From positions 641 through 64,640 of the forward strand of contig JAYUIX010000160.1 in the NCBI GenBank assembly GCA_043765635.1: 64,000 nucleotides of DNA. Direction: 5' to 3'. Under the pieces are notes generated by a model that was given only the letters and a program-made list of their open reading frames with translations, was not told the origin of the DNA and made no database searches. The position numbers were made by a program, and so were the translations under genes. Shown here one piece after another: positions 8,210-22,740 of this stretch (the stretch's first letter is position 1; each line of letters begins with the position of its first letter). Origin of the DNA: Sphingomonadales bacterium (GTDB taxonomy: Bacteria > Pseudomonadota > Alphaproteobacteria > Sphingomonadales > Sphingomonadaceae).

Positions 8210-9051
8210 TGCAAGAGATTATTCTGCCCGCAATTGGTTTTGCCAAGGCGTGGCGTAGCCGCGCCAGAAGGCTTGTCGAACGCCAAGTACCGCCAGAACA
8301 AATTGTCTGGCGGTCAGAAGACGATCAAGCGCTACTCGCGCTTGGAGGAGAGTCAGCAGACAGTGTCGCGCCCGCTCAAAGCGCGGTGCGGGTACCAAAA
8401 AACTTTATTGACCTCGCCGAAACCGCGCTCTGCGCTGACGTTCCCGATCGCTTTGCCTTGCCTTACGCGTTGTTGTGGCGATTGCAGACCGAGCGAGGCT
8501 TGCTCTCGATCCAGTCCGACCCTCAAGTCGCGCGGCTTCACGACTATACCAAGCGTGTGCGCCGCGATGCGCACAAGATGAAAGCCTTTGTGCGTTTCCG
8601 TGAAATCGGGGCTGGCAAAACCGAGAGGCGACGTTTTGTCGCCTGGTTTGAGTCCGATCATTTCACGCTTGAGCGCACTGCGCCCTTTTTTGCGCGCCGC
8701 TTTGGTGACATGGATTGGTCCATCCTGACACCCAGGCTTTGTGTGCACTGTCTCGGCGGGGTGCTAAAGCTTGAGGCTGGGACTGCAAAACCGGATATGC
8801 CGGTTGATGGTGCCGATGATCTGTGGCGCACTTATTTTGCAAATATCTTCAATCCCGCGCGGTTGAAGGTGAAGGCGATGCAGTCTGAAATGCCCAAGAA
8901 ATATTGGAAAAACCTGCCCGAAGCAGAGCTGATCCCGGCGCTTATCGCCTCTGCTGAAGCCCGCGTCCATGCAATGCGCGCGGCGGCACCAAGCGAGCCG
9001 CCATCACGTGCGGCGCGGATCAAAGCCGCCGTCAAAGCCTCTCAAGCATGA
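8209..9051 (+). CDS. DUF4130-domain putative DNA repair protein (partner of the radical SAM protein)
   Basis: ATG 8209 overlaps the upstream stop (TGATG). The conserved C-terminal region reads HKMKAFVRFRE...FVAWFESDHFTLE...FARRF. No uracil-DNA glycosylase domain is fused. Confidence 0.75.
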   Translation: MQEIILPAIGFAKAWRSRARRLVERQVPPEQIVWRSEDDQALLALGGESADSVAPAQSAVRVPKNFIDLAETALCADVPDRFALPYALLWRLQTERGLLSIQSDPQVARLHDYTKRVRRDAHKMKAFVRFREIGAGKTERRRFVAWFESDHFTLERTAPFFARRFGDMDWSILTPRLCVHCLGGVLKLEAGTAKPDMPVDGADDLWRTYFANIFNPARLKVKAMQSEMPKKYWKNLPEAELIPALIASAEARVHAMRAAAPSEPPSRAARIKAAVKASQA

Positions 9052-10526
9052 CGCGACTTGCGCCATAAGCGCCATTTGGACATGCTGCGAAAAAGCCCTC
9101 GTTTTTCAAGCACTTCAAAAGCTTCCTGTGGCCCTTCAGGATCAAGAATTTCATTATCGGCGAGCCATTTTTCAACCTCGTTCAGATTGGGGATCTCATA
9201 GGGCACGAGTGTTTTGCCCTTCCCGCGCATTGCCTCAATCGCCACAATCAACGATTTTTTCTCGGCAATCGTGGCTGTAATTTTGGAGATTTCGACCCCG
9301 AGATGTTCGGCAAGCAGGTCGTTTCGGATATCGGCTATCGTCGTGTTTACCTTGCCCCGCCGTTTCGTGCGGACATCAATTGCAATATCACATTCGCTGT
9401 CAAGCCGCATTGAACGGTTGTTGAGATTGGATGATCCAATGCGCAAAACAGTGTCATCGGCAATCAGAATTTTGGCATGAACATAAATTGGCGCACCCGA
9501 CTTTGTCACTGGATGATAAATACGGAGTCTATCCTGGTGATCATGGATTTTAAGTGCACGAAAAATGCGTGCGCGCGCCGTATCCATTGCGATTGGTTCA
9601 AGCCAGCCATCGGCTGTAAACGGATTGATAATGACAATTTCAGGGCCATTTTTCTCTTCAAGCCGCTTAAGCATCGCCTCGGCAATTTTGCGCGAGCAAA
9701 AATACTGGCTTTCAATATAAATAGTGCTTTTTGCGCGAGCAATCTGATCAAGATATAGCGCTTCGATCCCGTGGTGCGCGGGACGATCCGGCATTTCAGG
9801 AAGCGTCGTGGCGATTGTCACCGCGACATTGTTAAACTGTTTTTCGAGCGCCTCAGGCCAGCAATCGCCACCATCCTTTACTTTTGGTAATTTTTCACCC
9901 GTAGCCCACTTCCACCGTTCCAACGCCAACTGTGCCAGCGTCTCTGCGGCCTCACCCTGAAGTGCGGTTGAAGCGTCGTGCCACGGAGGATAAGCCGTGC
10001 CGTTGGGAAGCTTGCGCGCAGGCATGTCATCATCATGTGCGCGCGTATCCCAACGCGCCGATGTCACGTCTATCCCGCCGCAAAAGGCAAAAGCCTTGTC
10101 AATGATGATCATTTTTTGATGGTGCGATCCGCCAGCGGGATGATGTCCATCAAGCTTTGTATGAATTCGGGGGTGCCGCATCCACTTGAGAATGGTGAGC
10201 GGCGTGATCCCGCGAAATATCGAGGTAATGGCACCAAAATCCCAGCGTAACAGATAGACTTCCAATTCGGGATTTTTCTCGACAAGCGCGTAAATAAATT
10301 CGCCGACAAGGCGTGGGCCGTTCACACCTTCGGCAGGATCGCCAAGCGCAATCCGCGCATCAAAATCCCACCCGATGAGCATGATGCGCTTTCTCGCATT
10401 TGCCATAGCGGCACGGGCATGACGGAAATAATCATCGGCATCAATGATTACCGAGACATAATCAGCCATTGCAATAAGGGCTGAGTCGGTATTGGGAGGG
10501 CACTTTTTTTGATTTGGATCAGCCAT
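9042..10526 (-). CDS. phospholipase D-like protein with two HKD motifs
   Basis: Two HxK(x)4D motifs are present: HHQKMIIID and HAKILIADD...GSSNLNNRS. The 3' end overlaps the convergent DUF4130 gene by 10 nt. Confidence 0.85.
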   Translation of the reverse strand: MADPNQKKCPPNTDSALIAMADYVSVIIDADDYFRHARAAMANARKRIMLIGWDFDARIALGDPAEGVNGPRLVGEFIYALVEKNPELEVYLLRWDFGAITSIFRGITPLTILKWMRHPRIHTKLDGHHPAGGSHHQKMIIIDKAFAFCGGIDVTSARWDTRAHDDDMPARKLPNGTAYPPWHDASTALQGEAAETLAQLALERWKWATGEKLPKVKDGGDCWPEALEKQFNNVAVTIATTLPEMPDRPAHHGIEALYLDQIARAKSTIYIESQYFCSRKIAEAMLKRLEEKNGPEIVIINPFTADGWLEPIAMDTARARIFRALKIHDHQDRLRIYHPVTKSGAPIYVHAKILIADDTVLRIGSSNLNNRSMRLDSECDIAIDVRTKRRGKVNTTIADIRNDLLAEHLGVEISKITATIAEKKSLIVAIEAMRGKGKTLVPYEIPNLNEVEKWLADNEILDPEGPQEAFEVLEKRGLFRSMSKWRLWRKSRHA

Positions 10527-10562
10527 AACTCACCATCATTATTCACCGTGCGTACCGTGCCG

Positions 10563-10587
10563 GGAACATTACGCAAAGATAATCGTT
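10563..10587 (+). promoter_or_regulatory. EcfG-type promoter motif GGAAC-N16-CGTT with no downstream protein gene
   Basis: GGAAC lies at 10563-10567 and CGTT at 10584-10587. The motif points into the ORF-poor gap and is antisense to the region upstream of the PLD-like gene. Confidence 0.5.
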
Positions 10588-10593
10588 GTGCTG

Positions 10594-10657
10594 CTATCCT
10601 CCATGCCAATTGCACGGCGGTCGAATTCGAAAATTCCACAATTTTGCCGATTTTTTT
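10594..10657 (+). ncRNA. candidate small RNA 1 (approximate ends)
   Basis: It would start a few nt after the -10 element. CCUCC lies at 10598-10602. An imperfect hairpin (CGGCGG 10615-10620 with UUGCCG 10644-10649, inner GAAUU/AAUUC) is followed by seven U (10651-10657). There is no SD-preceded ORF. Confidence 0.3.
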
Positions 10658-10779
10658 CGTTATCTTGTGGATCGATAAAAGATGGTGGCGGGTCATTTTC
10701 AACCTGTTTGAACTTGGGACAGAGCCCGTCATCATTTTTTTATCATCATCCTTATGCTTCCTTCATGCTCCATATTAGC

Positions 10780-10876
10780 TCAATAATAATTGACCCCGCG
10801 CATGGATATGCGCGGGGCCGGGAGACTACTCATTATCAGCTTTGTCGGGGTGGAGAGGTAACCAAGCCGATAACGA
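10780..10876 (-). ncRNA. candidate small RNA 2, embedded in the crp/fnr 3' region (approximate ends)
   Basis: It would run from the EcfG-type promoter at 10883-10907 to the hairpin at 10794-10817 plus a U-rich tail. It contains UACCUCUCCACCCC (complement of 10847-10860). Only a 17-codon ORF without an SD is present. Confidence 0.35.
10794..10817 (-). terminator. intrinsic terminator-like hairpin downstream of crp/fnr
   Basis: On the minus strand, CCCCGCGCA-UAUCCA-UGCGCGGGG is followed by UCAAUUAUUAUU. Confidence 0.6.
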
Positions 10877-10882
10877 GAATAT

Positions 10883-10907
10883 AACGCGCAACGCTGATCA
10901 TTGTTCC
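10883..10907 (-). promoter_or_regulatory. EcfG-type promoter motif GGAAC-N16-CGTT between the crp/fnr stop and its terminator
   Basis: The plus strand reads AACG (10883-10886), 16 nt, then GTTCC (10903-10907). The crp/fnr stop is at 10917. Confidence 0.5.
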
Positions 10908-10916
10908 AATCCCATT

Positions 10917-11666
10917 TTAAATGAATGGGCGCGGTGCTCCTGGTTCATGATCATAATGGGCGAAATGGCGAGCAGCCTCCATATCTGGCACACGAATATC
11001 GTTAAGTGTCCATTCAATGATTTCTGACCGCCTGAGCGACTGCAACGTTCGGTTGGCATGAACGATTGAAAGCCCCAGCGTATCGGCAATCTGGGTTTGC
11101 GTAATTGAGATGTCGAGTTTGTTTTTCTTGACAATGCCAGTCTCGACGCCCCTGGTAATCAAGAAAAGCGCCAAGTATGCAATGCGTTCGCGCGCTGTAC
11201 GGCGGCCGATAGACACCAGATGTTCGTCCAGTGCTGCCTCTTCCTTGGCGGCAAGCCAAGTGAGATCATAACCAAGTTTGGGCTGTTCGCGGAACAGTTC
11301 AATAATCCGGTCACGCGAAAAAACACACAGTGTGGCCTCACCAAGCGCCTCAACCCCGTGCATCAACGGATCATCCATCGCCCCCTGTACCCCGATAAAA
11401 TCGCCTGGAAACACATAATTGACAATTTGACGGCGGCCATCCTCAAGGATTTTGAAGCGAAACAATATGCCTTTGAGGACGGTGTAAAGATGCGGGCTGA
11501 TCGAGCCTTGCACCAGCACCTGCGTGCCCTTGCTGACTGACATCTCTCCCTGTTTGAAATCCTGCATGAATTTGATCTGATTTGCATCAAGTGGCCGCAA
11601 GCCTTCACACGCAAGCAATGGGCACTGTGAGCATAATATGCGTATTGCCGCCGTCCGGATGGTCAT
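10917..11666 (-). CDS. Crp/Fnr family transcriptional regulator
   Basis: cNMP-binding-like beta-roll followed by a C-terminal HTH (ISITQTQIADTLGLSIVHANRTLQSLR). The N-terminus carries cysteines (CSQCPLLAC). Confidence 0.85.
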   Translation of the reverse strand: MTIRTAAIRILCSQCPLLACEGLRPLDANQIKFMQDFKQGEMSVSKGTQVLVQGSISPHLYTVLKGILFRFKILEDGRRQIVNYVFPGDFIGVQGAMDDPLMHGVEALGEATLCVFSRDRIIELFREQPKLGYDLTWLAAKEEAALDEHLVSIGRRTARERIAYLALFLITRGVETGIVKKNKLDISITQTQIADTLGLSIVHANRTLQSLRRSEIIEWTLNDIRVPDMEAARHFAHYDHEPGAPRPFI

Positions 11667-11756
11667 ATTTGTTCCTATATCAAATGATAATGCGGCAATT
11701 TTAATCGCCCCCTATGAAGTTGGCGCAGTCGGATTTGACTGCGACGGGAGGCTAAA

Positions 11757-12179
11757 TTGGAACGCTACAGCTTAAACGGTTACCGGATCCTTGTGGTCGA
11801 GGATAGCGCATTGATTGCGCTTGATATTGAAATCAGTCTCAGCGAGTTGGGCGCTAGCGTTTTTGTCGTTGCTAATCAGGCATCCGCCTTGCAACTGTTA
11901 TCGGAAAAGCGCTTCGATTTTGCTGTGGTTGACCTCGATCTCAATGGCACGCCCAGTAAACTACTGACTCAAGAATTGGTTGCAGAAAACTGCCCCTTTG
12001 TGATCTTAAGCGGATCAACCCATGCTCATGCTGAAAGCGTGTTTGGCAAGGTGTATTTCTTATCAAAACCCTTCGATATGTTCGCGCTTGCAGAATTAAT
12101 TATTCGCCGGGTAGAACCGTGCACAACATTTCCGTGTTATAAGCCAAAACATAATCTGATAAATGTGCCATTGGTTTGA
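11757..12179 (+). CDS. single-domain response regulator (receiver only)
   Basis: Receiver features: ILVVEDS, phospho-acceptor context FDFAVVDLDL, and SKPF. TTG start with GGGAGG 7 nt upstream. Adjacent to phyR. Confidence 0.8.
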   Translation: MERYSLNGYRILVVEDSALIALDIEISLSELGASVFVVANQASALQLLSEKRFDFAVVDLDLNGTPSKLLTQELVAENCPFVILSGSTHAHAESVFGKVYFLSKPFDMFALAELIIRRVEPCTTFPCYKPKHNLINVPLV

Positions 12180-12186
12180 AAATTAG

Positions 12187-12211
12187 GGAACCAATCTCCG
12201 CGACGGGCGTT
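12187..12211 (+). promoter_or_regulatory. EcfG-type promoter motif GGAAC-N16-CGTT upstream of phyR
   Basis: GGAAC lies at 12187-12191 and CGTT at 12208-12211, 38 nt before ATG 12249. Confidence 0.75.
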
Positions 12212-12248
12212 TAAGTTAAGGAATGTTTTGGGTCAGGGAGAGTGATTA

Positions 12249-13040
12249 ATGTCAGTTGCGCAGATGGTCGGGTCGCACCTTCCCTATCTACGTCGTTACG
12301 CGCGTGCGCTTACTGGATCTCAATCAAGCGGTGACGCATTCGTTCGCGCGACACTTGAAGCAGCAATTTTGGATAAGGCATTGCATGCGCAGATCAGTTT
12401 GGGACGTCAGCATCTTTATGCCGTTTTCAATCGCATATGGTCTGGCGCGCATGAAGAGCCTGTTCCGCCCACCTCGTTTGAAAACGCGCATGAGCTGGTT
12501 GCACAAGCACGCCTTTCAAAAATGACCCCGCTTGCACGGCAAGCATTGCTGCTCACAACACTTGAGGATTTTTCACCGGGGGACGCGGCGATTGTAATGG
12601 GAATTGACGCGGCCGAAGTGAGCGCGCTTGCCCAGTCGGCGATGGATGAAATTGCCGCCGAGTCATCGACAGATGTTCTTATTATTGAAGATGAACCACT
12701 GATTTCAATGCAACTTGAGGTTTTGGTCGAAGACCTTGGACATACTGTTTTTGGAACAGCCTCCACCCGAACGCAGGCTCTGGCGCTGGTTGCCGAACGC
12801 AGACCGGGACTTGTACTTGCCGATATTCAGCTTGCCGATGGCAGTTCGGGAATTGACACAGTTAATGATATTCTTGAACAGTTTCCTGTTCCGGTCATTT
12901 TCATCACTGCCTTTCCGGAGAAGCTGTTGACCGGCGATCGTCCCGAGCCAACCTATCTCGTCACAAAGCCATTTCAGGATGCAACGGTACAGGCAGCGAT
13001 TAGTCAGGCAATGTTTTTCGCCTCAAGCCAGCCCATTTGA
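12249..13040 (+). CDS. phyR: anti-anti-sigma factor / response regulator PhyR
   Basis: N-terminal ECF-sigma-like domain followed by a C-terminal receiver (VLIIEDEPLISMQLE...LVLADIQLADGSSG...VTKPF). It is located next to nepR-ecfG and preceded by an EcfG-type promoter. Confidence 0.9.
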   Translation: MSVAQMVGSHLPYLRRYARALTGSQSSGDAFVRATLEAAILDKALHAQISLGRQHLYAVFNRIWSGAHEEPVPPTSFENAHELVAQARLSKMTPLARQALLLTTLEDFSPGDAAIVMGIDAAEVSALAQSAMDEIAAESSTDVLIIEDEPLISMQLEVLVEDLGHTVFGTASTRTQALALVAERRPGLVLADIQLADGSSGIDTVNDILEQFPVPVIFITAFPEKLLTGDRPEPTYLVTKPFQDATVQAAISQAMFFASSQPI

Positions 13041-13043
13041 AAA

Positions 13044-14726
13044 CTAACGGTTCTGGGATAGTGTAAAGCCGTTCTGTGTTCGTACGGGGACGATAATTTC
13101 GCAGCGGACACCCTCGTCAAGGAAATCAAGCGCCACTTTTGAATTCAGTTCGTAAGAAATGATTTTTTCAATCAGGTTGGTGCCAAAGCCCGATTTTTGC
13201 GGCTTGGCAACTTCCGGGCCTTGCGTTTCTTGCCAGATGATTTTGACTTTTTCCAAGTCTTCGCGCGTCCACGTAATTGATACTTTCCCGTCCGGGACGC
13301 TGAGTGCGCCGTATTTGGTCGCATTGGTTGCAAGTTCGTGAATGGCAAGTCCAAGTGAGAGCGCATCATTGGGGGCAAGCACGACCTCGGGGCCGGCTAT
13401 ATCAAGCCGGCTGTCTTCAAATGCAAAATAAGGTGCCATTTCCGCGTTAATCACCGCGCGCAACGGTGTGGCCGCCCACTGCGAATTTGTGAGGATATCA
13501 TGCGTTGCCGAAATTGCCCGCACCCGCCCGGTAAGTGCCTCAACATAACTATCGATATCAGCGGCACCACGTTTCGTAAGCGAAATAATTGAAATCACGT
13601 TGGCCAGCGTGTTTTTAACGCGGTGATTAAGTTCACGTGTCAGCGTTGACCGGATGGCAACCTGTTCGGCCTGAATTGCGAACGCCCGCCGATCTTCTTC
13701 GGCGCGCAGAATGACAAGGCGGGTCAACAGAAGCAAGAGCACCGCCACCGCCAAACCGGCAAGCATCGTCCCCTGCCCGCGACTGCTCCAAGCACCGAGG
13801 AGTGCTGGTCTGGTGCTTAAAATCCACGTGCGCCCGGCAATGTTGATTGGCCGCTCAATCGAATCCTCGCTGCCCGGAATATCTGACGCAGTGGAATAAA
13901 GCAGGTTGGCCTCGGTTTTTTGGCTGTCATACACATGGAAGTGCAGGCCCAGTCTGGGTAATAGTAAAAGCGCAGAATCGATAAATTCTTTTGCCCTGAA
14001 CGGGCTGTAAACAAACCCGCGCAGCTTCGCCGAACGCATGGCTGGCGAAAAATTCGAGGCGTCTTCTGTGTAAACCGGCATAAAGATGAGGAAACCGGGG
14101 CCGCCTGAAGATTCTCCGTCCTGAACCAAGGTTACGATGCCACTCACTGTTGGCTTGGCCGTGCGTAGTGCGGAAACCATTGCCTTGCGCCGCACCGCTT
14201 CACTGAACATATTAAAGCCCATAGCTTTCAGATTTCCTGGCGTTTGCGGTTCAAGATATAGTATCGCGTGACGGCGAAGCTTCGCGTCCTGGGGCGGTGG
14301 CCATAGACGGTAATTAGCAATCCCCAATGCGCGGCCCCGTGCTTCAATCGAGGAAGCCTGGTCGGGCGCGAACGCAATTGACCAGCCGATGCCGCTGCCA
14401 CCGCGGTAATTCTCATCAAGCCTCAATTCGGAAACAAAGCGCTTGAACAAGGGTTTAGGCACGTCGCCAAGTGTTTCAAACAAGGCGGCTCCCGCCCGCA
14501 AAAAAGCGATATTAGCAATAACCCGGCGTTCGATCGCCACGGCAAGTTCAGTTGCCTTCATTGAAGCTTCGACCTCGCTGCGCTTTCGTTCGGAACGTTC
14601 AATTTCATAAACGCTGTAACCAGTCAGCAGCATTGTAAGGACAAAGACAATTACAGGCGCAACCCGGGGGTAACGTACCAACCATCCGGTCATGTCAGTA
14701 GATTTGAAGCTATCTCTAAGCGCCAA
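13044..14726 (-). CDS. HWE/HisKA_2-family sensor histidine kinase with periplasmic CHASE-like sensor
   Basis: Two TM segments flank a domain of about 270 aa. The H-box is ELNHRVKNTLANV and the ATPase region is HELATNATKYGAL. The gene converges on phyR with a 3-nt gap. TTG start with AGGGGA upstream; an alternative ATG lies at 14693. Confidence 0.85.
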   Translation of the reverse strand: MALRDSFKSTDMTGWLVRYPRVAPVIVFVLTMLLTGYSVYEIERSERKRSEVEASMKATELAVAIERRVIANIAFLRAGAALFETLGDVPKPLFKRFVSELRLDENYRGGSGIGWSIAFAPDQASSIEARGRALGIANYRLWPPPQDAKLRRHAILYLEPQTPGNLKAMGFNMFSEAVRRKAMVSALRTAKPTVSGIVTLVQDGESSGGPGFLIFMPVYTEDASNFSPAMRSAKLRGFVYSPFRAKEFIDSALLLLPRLGLHFHVYDSQKTEANLLYSTASDIPGSEDSIERPINIAGRTWILSTRPALLGAWSSRGQGTMLAGLAVAVLLLLLTRLVILRAEEDRRAFAIQAEQVAIRSTLTRELNHRVKNTLANVISIISLTKRGAADIDSYVEALTGRVRAISATHDILTNSQWAATPLRAVINAEMAPYFAFEDSRLDIAGPEVVLAPNDALSLGLAIHELATNATKYGALSVPDGKVSITWTREDLEKVKIIWQETQGPEVAKPQKSGFGTNLIEKIISYELNSKVALDFLDEGVRCEIIVPVRTQNGFTLSQNR

Positions 14727-14790: not shown

Positions 14791-14815
14791 GGAACCAACA
14801 TCGCCCGAGAACGTT
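14791..14815 (+). promoter_or_regulatory. EcfG-type promoter motif GGAAC-N16-CGTT upstream of dps
   Basis: GGAAC lies at 14791-14795 and CGTT at 14812-14815, 39 nt before ATG 14854. Confidence 0.75.
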
Positions 14816-14853
14816 CCCAATTATATCGATTTCACATAAACGAGGATAAAGTT

Positions 14854-15360
14854 ATGTCCAACCCAGCCTTAGATCAAGCTCCCAAAGTATCATCCCTCAA
14901 AACAGGTATAAGTAAAAATGATACCAAGGTAGTTGCCGAGGCGGTTTCAAACGCACTTGCCGACAGCTTTACGCTTTATCTCAAAACGCTTGGCGTTCAT
15001 TGGAATGTCGTTGGCGCATCTTTCTACGGTCTCCATAAGCTTACTCAAGCGCAATATGAAGACCTTGATGCTGCAATTGACGCAATGGCCGAACGTGTTC
15101 GTGCGCTTGGTCATCTGGCACCTGCAAGCTTTGGCGATTTTGCCAAACGCAGTGTGATCAAAAGTGAGTCCACAATTGCTACTGCTGATGAAATGATCAA
15201 CGAATTGGTTGCCGACAATGAGGCAATCGCCCGGCGGATGCGTGAGGCTGTCAAAATTGCCGATGACGCAGACGATGTTTTCACTGCTGACATGCTCACT
15301 GCGCGTATTGGTGTCCATGAACAAAATATCTGGATGCTAAGCGCTCATAATGCTGGTTGA
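14854..15360 (+). CDS. dps: Dps family DNA starvation/stationary-phase protection protein
   Basis: Ferritin-like Dps signature (FTLYLKTLGVHWNVVG...HKLTQAQYEDLDAAIDAMAERVRALG). GAGGA RBS upstream. The track start at 14773 lies upstream of the promoter motif. Confidence 0.9.
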   Translation: MSNPALDQAPKVSSLKTGISKNDTKVVAEAVSNALADSFTLYLKTLGVHWNVVGASFYGLHKLTQAQYEDLDAAIDAMAERVRALGHLAPASFGDFAKRSVIKSESTIATADEMINELVADNEAIARRMREAVKIADDADDVFTADMLTARIGVHEQNIWMLSAHNAG

Positions 15361-15412
15361 TCCCAAAATGCCACACACTCCAAATCTGTCTGATTGATAC
15401 AAAGGAAATAAC

Positions 15413-15625
15413 GTGCAACTGCACAACATACCCACAACGGATGGTGCTTTTGGTATGACAGGTAAACTTGATCCCGCACGTAACGGTGCAAAAGATCAAT
15501 CCGCTGTAAAAAAACCGGGATGGGCCGACGGTCTCCAAAAGCTTTACAATTCGGTTGTTGATGAGCCTCTTCCCGACGCGTTTGAGGAGTTGCTTAGAAA
15601 ACTGGATCAAAGTGATGAAGGCTGA
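15413..15625 (+). CDS. nepR: anti-sigma factor NepR
   Basis: 70-aa protein carrying the NepR signature LQKLYNSVVDEPLPDAFEELLRKLD. GTG start. It overlaps the ecfG start. Confidence 0.8.
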   Translation: MQLHNIPTTDGAFGMTGKLDPARNGAKDQSAVKKPGWADGLQKLYNSVVDEPLPDAFEELLRKLDQSDEG

Positions 15626-16214
15626 AACCAGCACGGAGCAATCACGGTCTGCCGATTTCAAACGGCGTCTGGCTGATGTCATTCCGCATCTCCGCGCCTT
15701 TGCGCGCGGGTTATGTGGTCGGCCCGATATGGCAGATGATCTTGTTCAGGAAACGATGCTCAAAGCATGGTCAGCACGTGAGCGGTTTGAAGAGGGCACG
15801 AATATGCGCGCCTGGACGTTCGTGATTCTGCGCAACACTTATCTTTCCGAAATCAGGCGCAACCGCTTTACTGGCGACTATGACGAAAGCGTTGCCGAGC
15901 GGATCATGGTTGTGAAGGCAGGTCAGGAAGGCCCGATGCACCTTGCCGATCTTCACCGCGCACTGCTCAAACTGCCGCAGGAACGGCGTGAGGCCTTGCT
16001 GCTTGTTGGCGCTGGCGGATTTAGTTATGAAGAAGCTGCCGCAATCTGCAACTGTGCGGTCGGCACAATGAAAAGCCGCGTTGGCCGCGCGCGCGCCGCA
16101 CTCACCCGAATGCTTGAAGGTGATGATATGCCCGCCTACCAAGCATCGGACACCCGCACAGCACATGCTGACATTATTGCGGAAATGAACTTGGTTGCTG
16201 GCCGGGCTGCCTAA
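15615..16214 (+). CDS. ecfG: ECF sigma factor EcfG (general stress response sigma)
   Basis: Sigma-70 region 2 (DLVQETMLKAWSARERFEEGTNMRAWTFVILRNTYLSEIRR) and region 4 (LPQERREALLLVGAGGFSYEEAAAICNCAVGTMKSRVGRARAAL). ATG 15615 overlaps the nepR 3' end. The track start is 15555. Confidence 0.9.
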   Translation: MKAETSTEQSRSADFKRRLADVIPHLRAFARGLCGRPDMADDLVQETMLKAWSARERFEEGTNMRAWTFVILRNTYLSEIRRNRFTGDYDESVAERIMVVKAGQEGPMHLADLHRALLKLPQERREALLLVGAGGFSYEEAAAICNCAVGTMKSRVGRARAALTRMLEGDDMPAYQASDTRTAHADIIAEMNLVAGRAA

Positions 16215-16241: not shown

Positions 16242-16862
16242 TTAAGCGCGGGGGTAAACCCACGGCGTTTCGCAGACAAAATTTTCATTTGCAAATGACC
16301 AGTTGAACAGTTTCTCAACAACAGCGTTTACATATTTGGGCCGTTGGTTTTGCTGGTCAAGATAATAGGCATGTTCCCACACATCAATCGTCAGCAGCGG
16401 CTTTACGCCAAGCGTTAACGGCGTTCCTGCATCATGGGTTTCGAGAAGTGCTGGCTTATCCTCACTCATCACCAGCCACACCCATCCCGATCCGAAATGT
16501 GCCTCAGCCATCATCGCCATTTCGGCGCGAAGTTCATTAAGGCCGCCAAATTCTGAAACAATCGCAGTTTCAAGTTTGGGGTTGGGGGCGGACTGCTTTT
16601 CGGGCGCAATACTCTCCCAATAAAAGGCGTGGTTCCACGCCTGCGCTGCTGGATTAAACAGCTCGGCATCACCGTCTTGTTCAGCCGCCATAATAATCTC
16701 TTCAAGCGAGGCGCTATCAAGACGCCCGCCCTCAATCGCGGCATTGGTTTTATCAACATAGGATTTCTGATGCTTGCCGTGATGAAGCTCCACAGTTGCT
16801 GCCGAGATATGCGGTGCCAGCGCCGACGGCGCAAAGGGCAATTGTGCGAGGATAATCGACAT
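16242..16862 (-). CDS. sodB: Fe/Mn superoxide dismutase
   Basis: Canonical motifs are present: LPFAPSALAPHIS...ELHHGKHQ and DVWEHAYYLDQQNQRPKYV. Confidence 0.9.
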   Translation of the reverse strand: MSIILAQLPFAPSALAPHISAATVELHHGKHQKSYVDKTNAAIEGGRLDSASLEEIIMAAEQDGDAELFNPAAQAWNHAFYWESIAPEKQSAPNPKLETAIVSEFGGLNELRAEMAMMAEAHFGSGWVWLVMSEDKPALLETHDAGTPLTLGVKPLLTIDVWEHAYYLDQQNQRPKYVNAVVEKLFNWSFANENFVCETPWVYPRA

Positions 16863-19827: not shown

Positions 19828-20250
19828 CTATTGCGGCTCCCAGGGGTTGAGAAGTTTGACGCCAAGCGGCGCGAAATCGGCGGTGTTGCGGGTAACGACC
19901 GTAAGATTATGGACAAGTGCTGTGGCGGCGATGAAGGCATCAAGTTCGGGGCGTGGATCGGGGACATGCAATGCAGCGCACTGCGTCACGACGGCTTGAT
20001 TTACATCAAGAATACGTCCGGCAAGCGAGGGGATAACTGACTGATCAAGCCAGACGCGAAGCATATTGCCCTGTTCGGCGTCCCTGTACGCCATGCGCCT
20101 TTGGCCGCGTTCAAGCTCAAGCAAAGTGATCACCGAGATAAACTGAAGCTGGCTGGAAATTCTCTTGGCCCAAGCGGCAACTTGAGCATTCCCCTTGCCA
20201 GTCCCAATCCGGCGGAATTCGGAGAGAACATTGGTATCGATCAAATACAT
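19828..20250 (-). CDS. vapC: type II toxin VapC (PIN domain ribonuclease)
   Basis: MYLIDTNVLSE... contains the PIN acidic residues. TAATG overlaps the upstream antitoxin gene. Confidence 0.85.
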   Translation of the reverse strand: MYLIDTNVLSEFRRIGTGKGNAQVAAWAKRISSQLQFISVITLLELERGQRRMAYRDAEQGNMLRVWLDQSVIPSLAGRILDVNQAVVTQCAALHVPDPRPELDAFIAATALVHNLTVVTRNTADFAPLGVKLLNPWEPQ

Positions 20251-20516
20251 TAGGAAAGATCAATCTCGCGGTTTGAAATCTCTTTTGATCGCGGAAGCAG
20301 CCATTCCTCGTCATCAATATGCGCGGTCTCGGGGCTGGCGAGGAGTTCAGCAAGGCTAGGCTCCTTGCCGAGCAGCCGCCGATACTCGTCATGCGTCAGC
20401 AGGACATGCTCAAACTTGCCGCGCTCAGTTATGAACACTGGCCCGCTGCGCGCCGCGCGCTTAGCGCGACCGACGTCTTGGTTGAATTCTCGGCTGGAAA
20501 GTGTCGTTATACCCAT
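20250..20516 (-). CDS. type II antitoxin, Phd/YefM family
   Basis: 88 aa; LSSREFNQDVGRAKRAARSGPVFITERGKFEHVLLTHDEYRRL is typical of Phd/YefM. It is coupled to vapC. Confidence 0.8.
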   Translation of the reverse strand: MGITTLSSREFNQDVGRAKRAARSGPVFITERGKFEHVLLTHDEYRRLLGKEPSLAELLASPETAHIDDEEWLLPRSKEISNREIDLS

Positions 20517-20517
20517 A

Positions 20518-20537
20518 ATGTAGCAACATTACTACAT
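20518..20537. promoter_or_regulatory. inverted repeat ATGTAG-N8-CTACAT, candidate TA operator
   Basis: Perfect 6-bp arms lie immediately upstream of the antitoxin start codon. Confidence 0.4.
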
Positions 20538-20592
20538 TCTCTGTTTATGGTCAATCTTTGCACTCTGCTGACAAACGGCTAGACCCGCGATT

Positions 20593-22740
20593 ATGACACA
20601 TCGATTCCTCATTGTGCTTGCCGCTGCCTGCGTTCTTGCTACCCCCACACTTGCCCAGAAAGCCCCCCAGAAAGCTCTAATGACTGATATTTCAAAACCG
20701 CCCGTCGCCGCCAAAAAAACCTACAGCTACACGCGCCACGGCGTTACTATCAGCGATGATTATCATTGGCTCAAGGACGAGGGCTATCCCAAGGTCAATG
20801 ATGTTCCAGTGCTTGATTATCTCAAAGCTGAGAACGCCTATTTCGAAGCACAGATGAAGCCGCACGCCGCGCGGGTCGAAACGATTTTCGCTGAGATGAA
20901 GGCGCGGCTCAAGGAGGATGAATCGACCGTTCCACAGAAAGACGGTGCGTATTTCTATTGGGAAAGTTACGAAAAAGGCGCGCAGTATAAAAAATGGATG
21001 CGCAAACCCGTCGCGGGCGGCCCTGATGAAGTGATGCTTGACGAAGCCAAGCTCGCCGAGGGCAAAGAGTATTTCCGCCTCGGCGCGCTCAGCGTCAGCC
21101 GCGATGACCGAATGATGGCGTATTCGACCGATACCGACGGATCGGAGCGCTTCACTGTCCGTTTCCGTGATCTAAGCACTGCCAAGGAGCTTCCCGAGAC
21201 GATCCCCGGCATCAATGGCAGCCTCGTCTTCAGTGCCGATGGCAAGCACTTGCTCTACACCCCGGTTAATGCGCAGTGGCGATCCGAAAAGGCCATGCTC
21301 CATACCTTTGGCACGCCGGTTTCTGCAGATAAAGTGCTTTACCAAGAAGCCGACCAAGGATTCCAAGTTGACATCAGCAGCACTCAGTCGGACAAATATA
21401 TCGTCATCTCAACCGGCAATATTGCGACGAGCGAGCTCCGCTTGATCCCCGCGAGTGATCCGCTCGCCAAGCATATTCTCATTCGCGCTCGCAAGGTTGG
21501 CGTTGAATATGATGTTGAGGAGCATGAGGGCACGCTCTTCATCCACACCAATGATACCAGCACTCAGTTTCGGTTGGTGACGGCAAGCCTCGACACGCCC
21601 GGCGAATGGTTTGAGCGGATTGCCCCGTCCAAAGATTTCTACATGACGGGGGTAATGACCTTTGCTGATTTTTTCGTGGTTGAGGGGCGTGATCGTGGCC
21701 TCGATCAGATTGAGATCCACAGCTATGCAGGCGGCGCGCCAAAGCGGGTGCCCTTTCCTGAGGCGAGCTATTCGGCAGGCCTTGATGACAACCCCGAATA
21801 TAAGATCAGCAAGCTCCGGCTTTCTTATGAGTCGATGGTCACACCCGATACGGTGTTTGATTATGACCTAGCGGATGCGAAACTGACCTCGCTCAAGGTG
21901 CAGGAAATCCCAAGCGGTTATGACGCGAGTCAATACGTGACTGAACGCGTCGAAATCACCGCGCGCGATGGCACCAAGGTGCCGGTGTCTGTGGTTTACA
22001 AAAAAGGCTTTAAGAAAGACGGCAACGGCCCGCTCTATCTCTATGCCTACGGCGCTTACGGCTATGCGATCCCGCCGGGATTTTCGACCGTGCGGCTGTC
22101 CTATCTTGATCGCGGTTTTGCTTATGCCATCGCGCATATTCGCGGCGGCGATGATCTGGGCCAGCAGTGGCAGCTTGACGGCAAGCTCACCAAGCGCACC
22201 AACACCTTCAATGATTTTGTCGATAGCGCCAAGGGGCTGATTGACCTCGGTTTTGCGAGAGCAGGCCGCGTCGTGGCCGCAGGAGGCTCCGCTGGCGGCG
22301 AACTGATGGGCGTCGTCGTCAACACCAATCCAGAGCTGTGGGGTGCGGTCGCGGCGCATGTGCCCTTTGTTGATGTGCTGAATACGATGCAGGATGAGAG
22401 CCTGCCGCTGACACCGGGCGAATGGCCCGAATGGGGCAACCCGATCACCGACAAGGCCGCGTTTGACCTGATCCGCAGCTACTCCCCCTATGATCAAGTG
22501 AAGCCGCAGAAATATCCGCCACTGTTTGTGACGGCAGGCCTCAACGACCCCCGTGTAACCTATTGGGAACCCGCCAAATGGGTCGCCAAATTGCGAAGCG
22601 TGAAGACCGACAACAATATCCTGATGCTCAAAACCAACATGGGCGCAGGGCATGGCGGCAAATCAGGCCGATTTGAAAGTTTGAGAGAGGATGCGGAAGA
22701 AGTGGCGTTCTTTCTGTGGCAATTGGGGATGGTGGAGTGA
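20593..22740 (+). CDS. ptrB: oligopeptidase B (S9A prolyl oligopeptidase family)
   Basis: 715 aa with a signal peptide, beta-propeller and catalytic domain. The active-site serine is in GGSAGGELMG, and a GAGHGG region lies near the C-terminus. Confidence 0.9.
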   Translation: MTHRFLIVLAAACVLATPTLAQKAPQKALMTDISKPPVAAKKTYSYTRHGVTISDDYHWLKDEGYPKVNDVPVLDYLKAENAYFEAQMKPHAARVETIFAEMKARLKEDESTVPQKDGAYFYWESYEKGAQYKKWMRKPVAGGPDEVMLDEAKLAEGKEYFRLGALSVSRDDRMMAYSTDTDGSERFTVRFRDLSTAKELPETIPGINGSLVFSADGKHLLYTPVNAQWRSEKAMLHTFGTPVSADKVLYQEADQGFQVDISSTQSDKYIVISTGNIATSELRLIPASDPLAKHILIRARKVGVEYDVEEHEGTLFIHTNDTSTQFRLVTASLDTPGEWFERIAPSKDFYMTGVMTFADFFVVEGRDRGLDQIEIHSYAGGAPKRVPFPEASYSAGLDDNPEYKISKLRLSYESMVTPDTVFDYDLADAKLTSLKVQEIPSGYDASQYVTERVEITARDGTKVPVSVVYKKGFKKDGNGPLYLYAYGAYGYAIPPGFSTVRLSYLDRGFAYAIAHIRGGDDLGQQWQLDGKLTKRTNTFNDFVDSAKGLIDLGFARAGRVVAAGGSAGGELMGVVVNTNPELWGAVAAHVPFVDVLNTMQDESLPLTPGEWPEWGNPITDKAAFDLIRSYSPYDQVKPQKYPPLFVTAGLNDPRVTYWEPAKWVAKLRSVKTDNNILMLKTNMGAGHGGKSGRFESLREDAEEVAFFLWQLGMVE
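22705..22737 (+). repeat. direct repeat copy 1 (native 3' end of ptrB)
   Basis: GCGTTCTTTCTGTGGCAATTGGGGATGGTGGAG is identical at 30 of 33 positions to 23197-23229. Confidence 0.85.

Follow-up and report, generated by a model that had tools for sequence, protein, structure and literature searches.

The small RNA (sRNA) GsrN of Caulobacter crescentus (ccna_R0081; Tien, Fiebig and Crosson 2018, PMC5869019) is the characterised RNA arm of the alphaproteobacterial general stress response (GSR). GsrN is induced by stress in dependence on EcfG/PhyR, is processed to a stable 5' isoform and carries a loop of six tandem cytosines that pairs with G-tracts, for example the one in the katG leader, as proved by compensatory mutations; EcfG-regulated sRNAs are prevalent beside GSR loci in Caulobacteraceae and Rhizobiales, and a gsrN-like gene was not evident in 2018 in a strain of Erythrobacter litoralis, the one sphingomonad relative examined (PMC5869019). 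Here we describe M, an element on the minus strand of a 64,000-nt stretch of DNA (the window) from contig JAYUIX010000160.1 of a Sphingomonadales bacterium. M lies in the gap downstream of a crp/fnr gene (crp) at a phyR locus; its promoter appears to be EcfG-dependent, and M is very probably an EcfG-dependent sRNA gene. Also relevant for comparison are DapZ and MicL of enterobacteria, 3' untranslated region (3'UTR) sRNAs with their own promoter, and SuhB/MmgR, whose loops are C-rich and anti-Shine-Dalgarno-like. SuhB/MmgR (alpha-r8, Rfam suhB) is an alphaproteobacterial sRNA that affects stress resistance and was studied in Sphingopyxis granuli TFA; it is under a LysR-type regulator and its regulon is largely apart from the GSR (bioRxiv 10.64898/2025.12.09.693200).

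A motif search of the window found GGAAC-N16-CGTT (GGAACAATGATCAGCGTTGCGCGTT), the exact EcfG-type consensus, at 10907-10883 on the minus strand, precisely where an earlier note made from the letters of the stretch had placed a perfect match. The note was also right that the motif follows the stop codon of crp/fnr (open reading frame (ORF) 10917-11666, minus strand); 9 nt lie between the two. We consider it probable that M is a free-standing, EcfG-driven, GsrN-like sRNA gene (~10877-10781, minus strand) with a C-rich loop that pairs with mRNAs. The transcript is predicted to start at ~10877-10874, at the foot of the 5' hairpin, and to terminate at ~10781, at the intrinsic terminator, which would give an RNA of ~95 nt. 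The parts of M, with folds taken from the minimum free energy (MFE) and centroid predictions, are as follows:

10908-10925, minus strand: A/T-rich stretch CATTTAAAATGGGATT, a possible UP-like element seen in the sequence, which overlaps the crp stop TAA at 10917-10919
10903-10907, minus strand: -35 box GGAAC of the EcfG-type promoter, seen in the sequence and invariant in 47/47 distinct homologous loci
10883-10886, minus strand: -10 box CGTT, 16 nt past the -35 box, a spacing (N16) found in 47/47 loci
10874-10878, minus strand: putative start site of transcription at the hairpin foot, from the distance between the 5' hairpin and the -10 box
10829-10877, minus strand: 5' hairpin with a 14-bp outer stem, a G·A mismatch and a 3-bp inner stem (MFE and centroid folds)
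10847-10859, minus strand: exposed C-rich 13-nt loop ACCUCUCCACCCC, the presumed pairing seed, unpaired in the MFE and centroid folds
10820-10828, minus strand: single-stranded linker UAGUCUCCC with a second short C-rich motif (fold)
10780-10819, minus strand: intrinsic terminator, a G+C-rich 12-bp hairpin (10819-10792) with the U-rich tail AAUUAUUAUUGA (10791-10780) (terminator scan and fold)

M and GsrN are alike in design, both having a sigma-T/EcfG-type promoter, a length of ~100 nt and a 5' hairpin with an exposed C-rich loop that is followed by a terminator. Their positions are also comparable: the gsrN gene stands beside ecfG-nepR-phyR in most Caulobacteraceae, and M stands in a phyR locus, 1.3 kb from phyR and 4.7 kb from ecfG. 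The remark in the earlier note that its author knew of no described equivalent at such a locus type needs correction, as GsrN homologues and EcfG-driven sRNAs are typically found beside GSR regulators (PMC5869019). SuhB differs from M in its control, by a LysR-type regulator versus an EcfG-type promoter, and a cmscan of positions 9500-13500 against 4227 Rfam families gave no relevant match at E <= 10, suhB included. Furthermore, Rfam scans of the loci of relatives gave no match at E <= 1, and RF01529 (CC3552; 106 positions), which scores above its cut-off in Caulobacter vibrioides, had no match at E <= 1 in the whole window genome.

Folding of the predicted RNA (10880-10780, minus strand) gave two hairpins with an energy of -44.3 kcal/mol (z = -7.46); none of 200 shuffled sequences was as stable. 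In the terminator scan, the hairpin at 10819-10792 had 12 pairs, nine of them G-C, a loop of 4 and the tail AATTATTATT, and it was the sole terminator-like site on the minus strand in the gap; the earlier claim of a single good terminator, then drawn at 10817-10794, is thus borne out with slightly wider limits. Because crp has no terminator of its own in the gap, crp transcripts must run through M to the terminator of M. With regard to coding potential, an ATG-started 17-codon ORF (MSSLPAPRISMRGVNYY) is the only ORF in M and has no Shine-Dalgarno sequence, as had been noted before. That M encodes a small protein, from this ORF or another, has almost no chance of being right: in the alignment the stop of the 17-codon ORF is lost in the two closest relatives, the ORF is not conserved, an equivalent is absent from the other subtypes of the RNA described below, and homologues have loop C-runs of 6 to 8 C, a difference in length that would shift any reading frame.

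Matches to GGAAC-N15-17-CGTT were enriched in the 64-kb window, with six seen versus 1.39 expected and none of 100 shuffles reaching six, and five of the six lay within 8 kb around the PhyR/NepR/EcfG locus. Three of the window motifs are 28-38 nt 5' of the starts of gsp26, phyR and dps and, given this distance, would be ordinary EcfG promoters. A variant with a TGTT box was found in the same genome upstream of the catalase gene katE and of small membrane-protein genes. The comparison of M with its homologues covered 47 distinct loci, of which all carried GGAAC and the 16-nt spacing, while the spacer itself was variable (mean pairwise identity 0.43). The hairpin began 7 nt past the -10 box in 44/47 loci, 6 nt past it in M, and 6-8 nt past it overall. 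Constant boxes and constant spacing around a variable spacer are, as a sequence signature, the pattern of a promoter under selection. In addition, the 30 nt upstream of GGAAC were 56% A+T in the 47 loci versus 39% for the loci overall, and in 45/47 they included four or more consecutive A or T; this upstream stretch appears to be an UP-like element ahead of an ECF-type (extracytoplasmic function) promoter. Within the same region, an A-run followed by a T-run (e.g. GAAAAAAATTTC) was observed 10-30 nt 5' of the -35 box in 45/47 homologous loci.

The -10 boxes of the 47 loci were CATT (36), CGTT (4), CGTA (4), TGTT (2) and GGTT (1). Since CATT and not the consensus CGTT is the commonest box, and AAC-containing -35 boxes are common to ECF sigma factors (PMC7083833), the RNA gene could be real and conserved and its promoter nevertheless be read by another GGAAC-type ECF sigma factor, outside the EcfG regulon. 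We consider this improbable. In S. granuli TFA, GGAAC is nearly invariant and the -10 box flexible at EcfG promoters; CGTT, TGTT, CATT and GGTT are the commonest -10 boxes there, and each was transcribed in vitro by RNA polymerase (RNAP) carrying EcfG1 or EcfG2 (PMC7083833). CGTA is the -10 box of the S. granuli phyR2 promoter, and CATT that of mltA2, which is among the most strongly EcfG-dependent promoters listed (~300-fold; PMC7083833 supplement). All five boxes of the family are therefore documented at EcfG-dependent promoters of S. granuli TFA, four of them by in vitro transcription, and the CATT box in particular is both strongly EcfG-dependent at mltA2 and transcribed in vitro by the EcfG holoenzymes. 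CATT-type boxes also occur at EcfG-dependent genes of Sphingomonas melonis Fr1 (PMC6599016). Moreover, the -10 box in the window genome is the exact consensus CGTT, and the 51/51 examined copies with enough flanking sequence adjoin phyR.

The window genome is a 3.05-Mb assembly of 242 contigs, whose nearest relatives are labelled MAG: Sphingomonadales bacterium GFS_4306 / GFS_3822. By DNA similarity the gap was found in two sister genomes only (86-87% identity), and covariance models from the three clade sequences picked up nothing more when 51 genomes of the genus were searched. The -10 box of M reads TGTT in the sister genomes, the loop ACCUCUCCACCCC is invariant with one extra A 5' of it, and the stem differences are all one-sided with pairing kept (U-A to U-G, G-U to G-C). 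Read from the opposite strand, these G·U pairs would turn into C·A mismatches, which argues that the minus strand is the transcribed one. The clade-restricted appearance of M proved wrong, because synteny of the crp protein uncovered a wider family. Novosphingobium-labelled metagenome-assembled genomes (crp 68-71% identity) and one metagenome contig showed the same layout after the crp stop, here with a second subtype of the RNA: GGAAC, 16 nt, GGTT or CATT, a hairpin with a different stem, the C-rich loop UAACCCCUCCCGCCCCCCC and a terminator. Of 401 genomes sampled from the order, 35 had an orthologue by a crp profile, and the 29 crp-linked loci that were fetched (29/29) all had GGAAC-N16-CATT, CGTT or CGTA, followed ~7 nt on by a near-invariant UGUCACCGCCGAG-ACCCCCC(C)UCCCGUCCAAG-CGGCUGGUGAUACGAUCCCGAAAGG and then a terminator with U6-8. 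This main subtype has the signature UGUCACCGCCGAG-ACCCCCCCUCCCGUCCAAG-CGGCUGGUGAUA... A metagenome scan with the crp profile added one usable locus (L062). Five relatives of other subtypes were folded and took the same two-hairpin architecture. A second copy of M in the window genome was found neither by BLAST nor by motif search; an orphan motif near the other GSR locus of that genome (contig C2, position 19023) was considered as such a copy and rejected, as it lies inside a gene and has no RNA-like structure.

To search for the RNA itself we used two covariance models, R3 from 21 main-subtype sequences and R1 from the clade of M. With R3, the main subtype turned up in 54 of the 150 genomes sampled from the GTDB family, in many genera and with one strong copy each (E <= 2e-13). 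Among 40 genomes of the genus to which the window belongs, R3 had no convincing hit, and a run on 150 other alphaproteobacterial families, with one genome per family, returned generic terminators only. The searches with the filters off covered 75 kb: R3 hit M with 23.2 bits (E = 5.7e-4), M together with its two sisters at E values of 6e-4 to 1.6e-3, and the second subtype at E values of 4e-5 to 1.4e-3, each hit lying where and on the strand where it was expected. The model of the M clade alone also found the second subtype, at 22-38 bits. M differs from the main subtype in its longer stem of another sequence and in its loop, ACCUCUCCACCCC instead of a C7 run; it shares with the family the promoter type, the spacing, the distance to the hairpin, the two-hairpin architecture, the C-rich loop and the locus of a histidine kinase (HK) and phyR. 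By these sequence comparisons, M belongs to an RNA family that is widespread in Sphingomonadaceae and tied to phyR; within it, M is a divergent subtype whose only other carriers are the two sister species-level genomes.

The loci also bear on whether M is a gene of its own. The two hairpins could be no more than the 3'UTR and terminator of crp/fnr, with a promoter match that arose by chance: the stretch from the crp stop to the hairpins holds no further terminator, so that crp transcripts end at the terminator of M, and 41 such motifs occur genome-wide, several of them inside genes. We regard this as highly unlikely, and as already contradicted by the comparison of loci. Of the 12 loci that the RNA model found, 10 have this promoter and RNA beside phyR with no crp, at 130-300 nt from phyR, and four genomes without a match to the crp profile (G077, G080, G094 and G127) yet had strong RNA hits. 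In addition, GGAAC and N16 are invariant in the 47 loci with the hairpin at a fixed 6-8 nt, whereas the spacer varies. The order HWE kinase, divergent phyR, RNA gene, with or without crp, was found in 51/51 examined loci with enough flank. Because crp is missing from 10/12 model-found loci, we infer that it is an insertion present in a minority of genomes, that the RNA gene is an independent unit of the GSR locus, and that the conserved partner of the RNA is phyR with the GSR locus and not crp. In the lineage of the window, an FNR-like crp would have been inserted between phyR and the RNA gene. In Erythrobacter litoralis DSM 8509, the gene order after phyR is a hypothetical protein and a desaturase, with no crp.

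The same loci revise the likeness to DapZ and MicL that the earlier note had drawn, in which M was a 3'UTR-embedded sRNA. M does share its terminator with the crp mRNA and has its promoter at the very end of that gene. However, this arrangement is a local accident, as 10/12 loci have the RNA beside phyR without crp. M further differs from the enterobacterial sRNAs in that its promoter lies 9 nt past the stop codon and not inside the coding sequence, in its evolutionary independence of crp, and in its sigma factor and bacterial group.

Base-pair changes were counted in a model-guided alignment of 15 distinct sequences from the three subtypes, an alignment that is fitted to the model and so favours structure; a MAFFT alignment of the three subtypes misaligned the second subtype and was not used for the counts. 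In the 15 sequences, 99.1% of cells were paired versus 73.2% in shuffles, and 18 of 22 pairs changed on both sides. Cells with two-sided changes numbered 74 versus 15.1 in shuffles (0/500 reached this value), and slid controls gave 0-17, a wide margin even with an alignment of this kind. In the 5' hairpin, two-sided changes were seen in 10/11 pairs with 100% of cells paired, and in the terminator in 8/11 pairs. A G·U pair near the base of the 5' hairpin, kept in 12/15 sequences, is compatible with the minus strand alone. When the main subtype is taken by itself, its 5' hairpin is nearly invariant in both stem and loop across dozens of genera, and 7/11 terminator pairs covary. The check that the earlier note had proposed, of conservation and covariation of this region in related genomes, thus came out in favour of its central claim, a discrete, terminator-bounded RNA of ~90-100 nt with an EcfG-type promoter: promoter, architecture and position are conserved in 47 distinct loci, where promoter and hairpin are kept together, and the structure covaries in 18/22 pairs.

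The exposed C-rich motif of the earlier note is likewise present, as the 13-nt loop ACCUCUCCACCCC is unpaired, and C-rich loops occur in all subtypes. The homologous loops read ACCCCCC(C)UCCCGUCC in the main subtype and (A/U)ACCCCUCCCGCCCCCCC in the second. Across the three subtypes, the stems have been exchanged and the loop form CCYCUCC plus a C-run has been retained, and on this ground the loop would be the pairing seed. The linker motif UCCCG is also found in the linker of the main subtype (GAUCCCGAAAGG). Under the proposed mechanism, stress would cause the PhyR-NepR partner switch that frees sigma-EcfG, and EcfG would then transcribe M from GGAAC-N16-CGTT, a step suggested by sequence and comparison. 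By analogy with GsrN, the loop, and perhaps the UCUCCC of the linker, may pair with G-rich or Shine-Dalgarno-like stretches of mRNA leaders. Such pairing may alter the translation or stability of the targets, and M could then serve as a post-transcriptional arm of the EcfG regulon as GsrN does in Caulobacter.

Several further observations, besides the wide use of AAC-containing -35 boxes among ECF sigma factors, weigh against reading M as an EcfG-driven, GsrN-like pairing RNA. Between GsrN and M, no relationship is detectable by sequence or covariance model, and for this reason a GsrN-like mechanism for M rests on design and not on homology. With its whole-genome filters R3 left M below detection, and the family membership of M therefore rests also on the intermediate subtype, which both R1 and R3 find. 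The terminator tail of M (AAUUAUUAUU) has fewer U than that of the main subtype (U6-8). A crude target scan of the window genome, in which loop duplex energies were computed for ~9,600 candidate translation starts, gave no convincing target; spurious ORFs made up most of its noisy output. The loop has with the Shine-Dalgarno region of phyR a generic complementarity of 6-7 bp only, which is not specific. The best site of the target scan (contig C120, position 1291) was rejected as it is antisense to a helicase gene.

M might instead be a structured RNA with a job other than pairing, namely a protein-binding RNA, a sponge, or a cis element acting on the divergent phyR promoter or the crp transcript. 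Neither the target scan nor the phyR comparison identified a target, the near-invariance of stem and loop in the main-subtype 5' hairpin is more than a simple seed needs, and the fixed place beside phyR could reflect a role in cis. We nevertheless think such a job unlikely. M has its own promoter and a strong terminator and occurs in one copy per genome; compensatory replacement of the stems around a retained C-rich loop is typical of a pairing loop; and the design matches that of GsrN, for which loop-target pairing was shown by compensatory mutations (PMC5869019). The GsrN-like, EcfG-driven sRNA gene is thus the reading that we retain.

An RNA supported by covariation is fixed beside phyR in about a third of the sampled Sphingomonadaceae genomes, and this suggests, from sequence comparison, that an EcfG-driven sRNA with a C-rich loop is a recurrent, perhaps general, component of the GSR. 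The phyR-adjacent family is neither in Rfam nor in the literature searched, in which work on sphingomonad GSR regulons analysed coding genes only and mentioned no such RNA. Within that literature, the family of M is undescribed in print, and its kind, the EcfG-driven GsrN-like sRNA, is already known. What the present analysis contributes is the linkage to crp, a divergent subtype at the second GSR locus of a genome, and the match of the -10 boxes with boxes documented at EcfG-dependent promoters. The family offers a well-defined test object in culturable sphingomonads, which serve bioremediation, plant protection and marine studies.

The locus around M reads HK, phyR, receiver-domain gene, crp and M; it is a complete GSR locus, at whose edge the gap with M lies. 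Its genes, identified by ORF and domain analysis (for crp/fnr, by the Pfam domains cNMP_binding and HTH_Crp_2), are as follows:

10917-11666, minus strand: crp/fnr
11757-12179, plus strand: receiver-domain gene
12249-13040, plus strand: phyR
13044-14726, minus strand: CHASE/HWE histidine kinase
14854-15360, plus strand: dps
15413-15625, plus strand: nepR
about 15624-16214, plus strand: ecfG
16242-16862, minus strand: Fe/Mn superoxide dismutase

No EcfG motif was found in front of nepR-ecfG in the window. The nearest one is upstream of dps, and dps-nepR-ecfG (window 14791-15625, plus strand) may for this reason form one EcfG-driven operon. In an alignment, the crp/fnr protein and its orthologues have four invariant cysteines, C12-x2-C15-x4-C20 and C114. 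These recall the iron-sulphur ligands of FNR, and the regulator may sense oxygen or the redox state.

Two PhyR paralogues are present in the window genome and its two sisters, and one in the other members of the genus. The other GSR locus of the window genome (contig C2, 19110-20883) has phyR at 20101-20856 and a divergent nepR-ecfG and is of the type usual for the genus. The two PhyR proteins of the genome are 46% identical. With the PhyR proteins that accompany the RNA family in other genera, the PhyR of the window shares 55-68% identity, and with those of its own genus only 46-53%. We infer from these identities that the window locus, including the RNA gene, is the second GSR module of this genome, is of a foreign type that carriers of the RNA family have, and was either acquired or differentially retained. 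The RNA gene would have travelled with this module, which appears to have gained, in addition, a second orphan EcfG promoter with a structured RNA.

This second promoter is an exact GGAAC-N16-CGTT at 10563-10587 on the plus strand (GGAACATTACGCAAAGATAATCGTT), convergent with that of M in the same gap and unchanged in the two sister genomes. The feature is:

10563-10745, plus strand: P, a putative second EcfG-type RNA gene (promoter motif and conserved structured region)

Downstream of the P promoter, a structured region of ~150 nt (10592-10745, plus strand) is 97% identical in the three genomes and ends in a long hairpin, AUGGUGGCGGGU...GCCCGUCAUCAU, plus U7 (about 10674-10744). A separate earlier note had expected a P transcript of ~65 nt; the conserved block and terminator suggest ~150 nt instead. 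Within the region, one pair is changed on both sides (C-G to U-A), and one A-U to G-U change is compatible with the plus strand alone. A 1-nt indel in an A-run rules out the long ORFs of the region, on one strand as on the other. A covariance-model search found P only in the three-genome clade.

P would be antisense to the leader of the phospholipase D (PLD)-like gene, which starts at 10526. One proposal, which is tentative and rather doubtful, is that M is the sphingomonad counterpart of GsrN and feeds back on the phyR or nepR-ecfG mRNAs, and that M and the convergent P (10594-10745, plus strand), as an antisense RNA to the PLD-like leader, form a two-RNA stress module acquired with the second GSR locus. 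Feedback of this kind would account for the tight tie between the gene and phyR, which holds in dozens of genera. Synteny based on PLD homologues found no such motifs near these genes in other genomes. The PLD-like gene itself (9042-10526, minus strand) has homologues 3-8 kb from phyR in two other genomes of the genus (G031, contig C2; G004, contig C15), with 45-48% identity, which hints at a recurring link between a phospholipase D-family gene and the stress locus.

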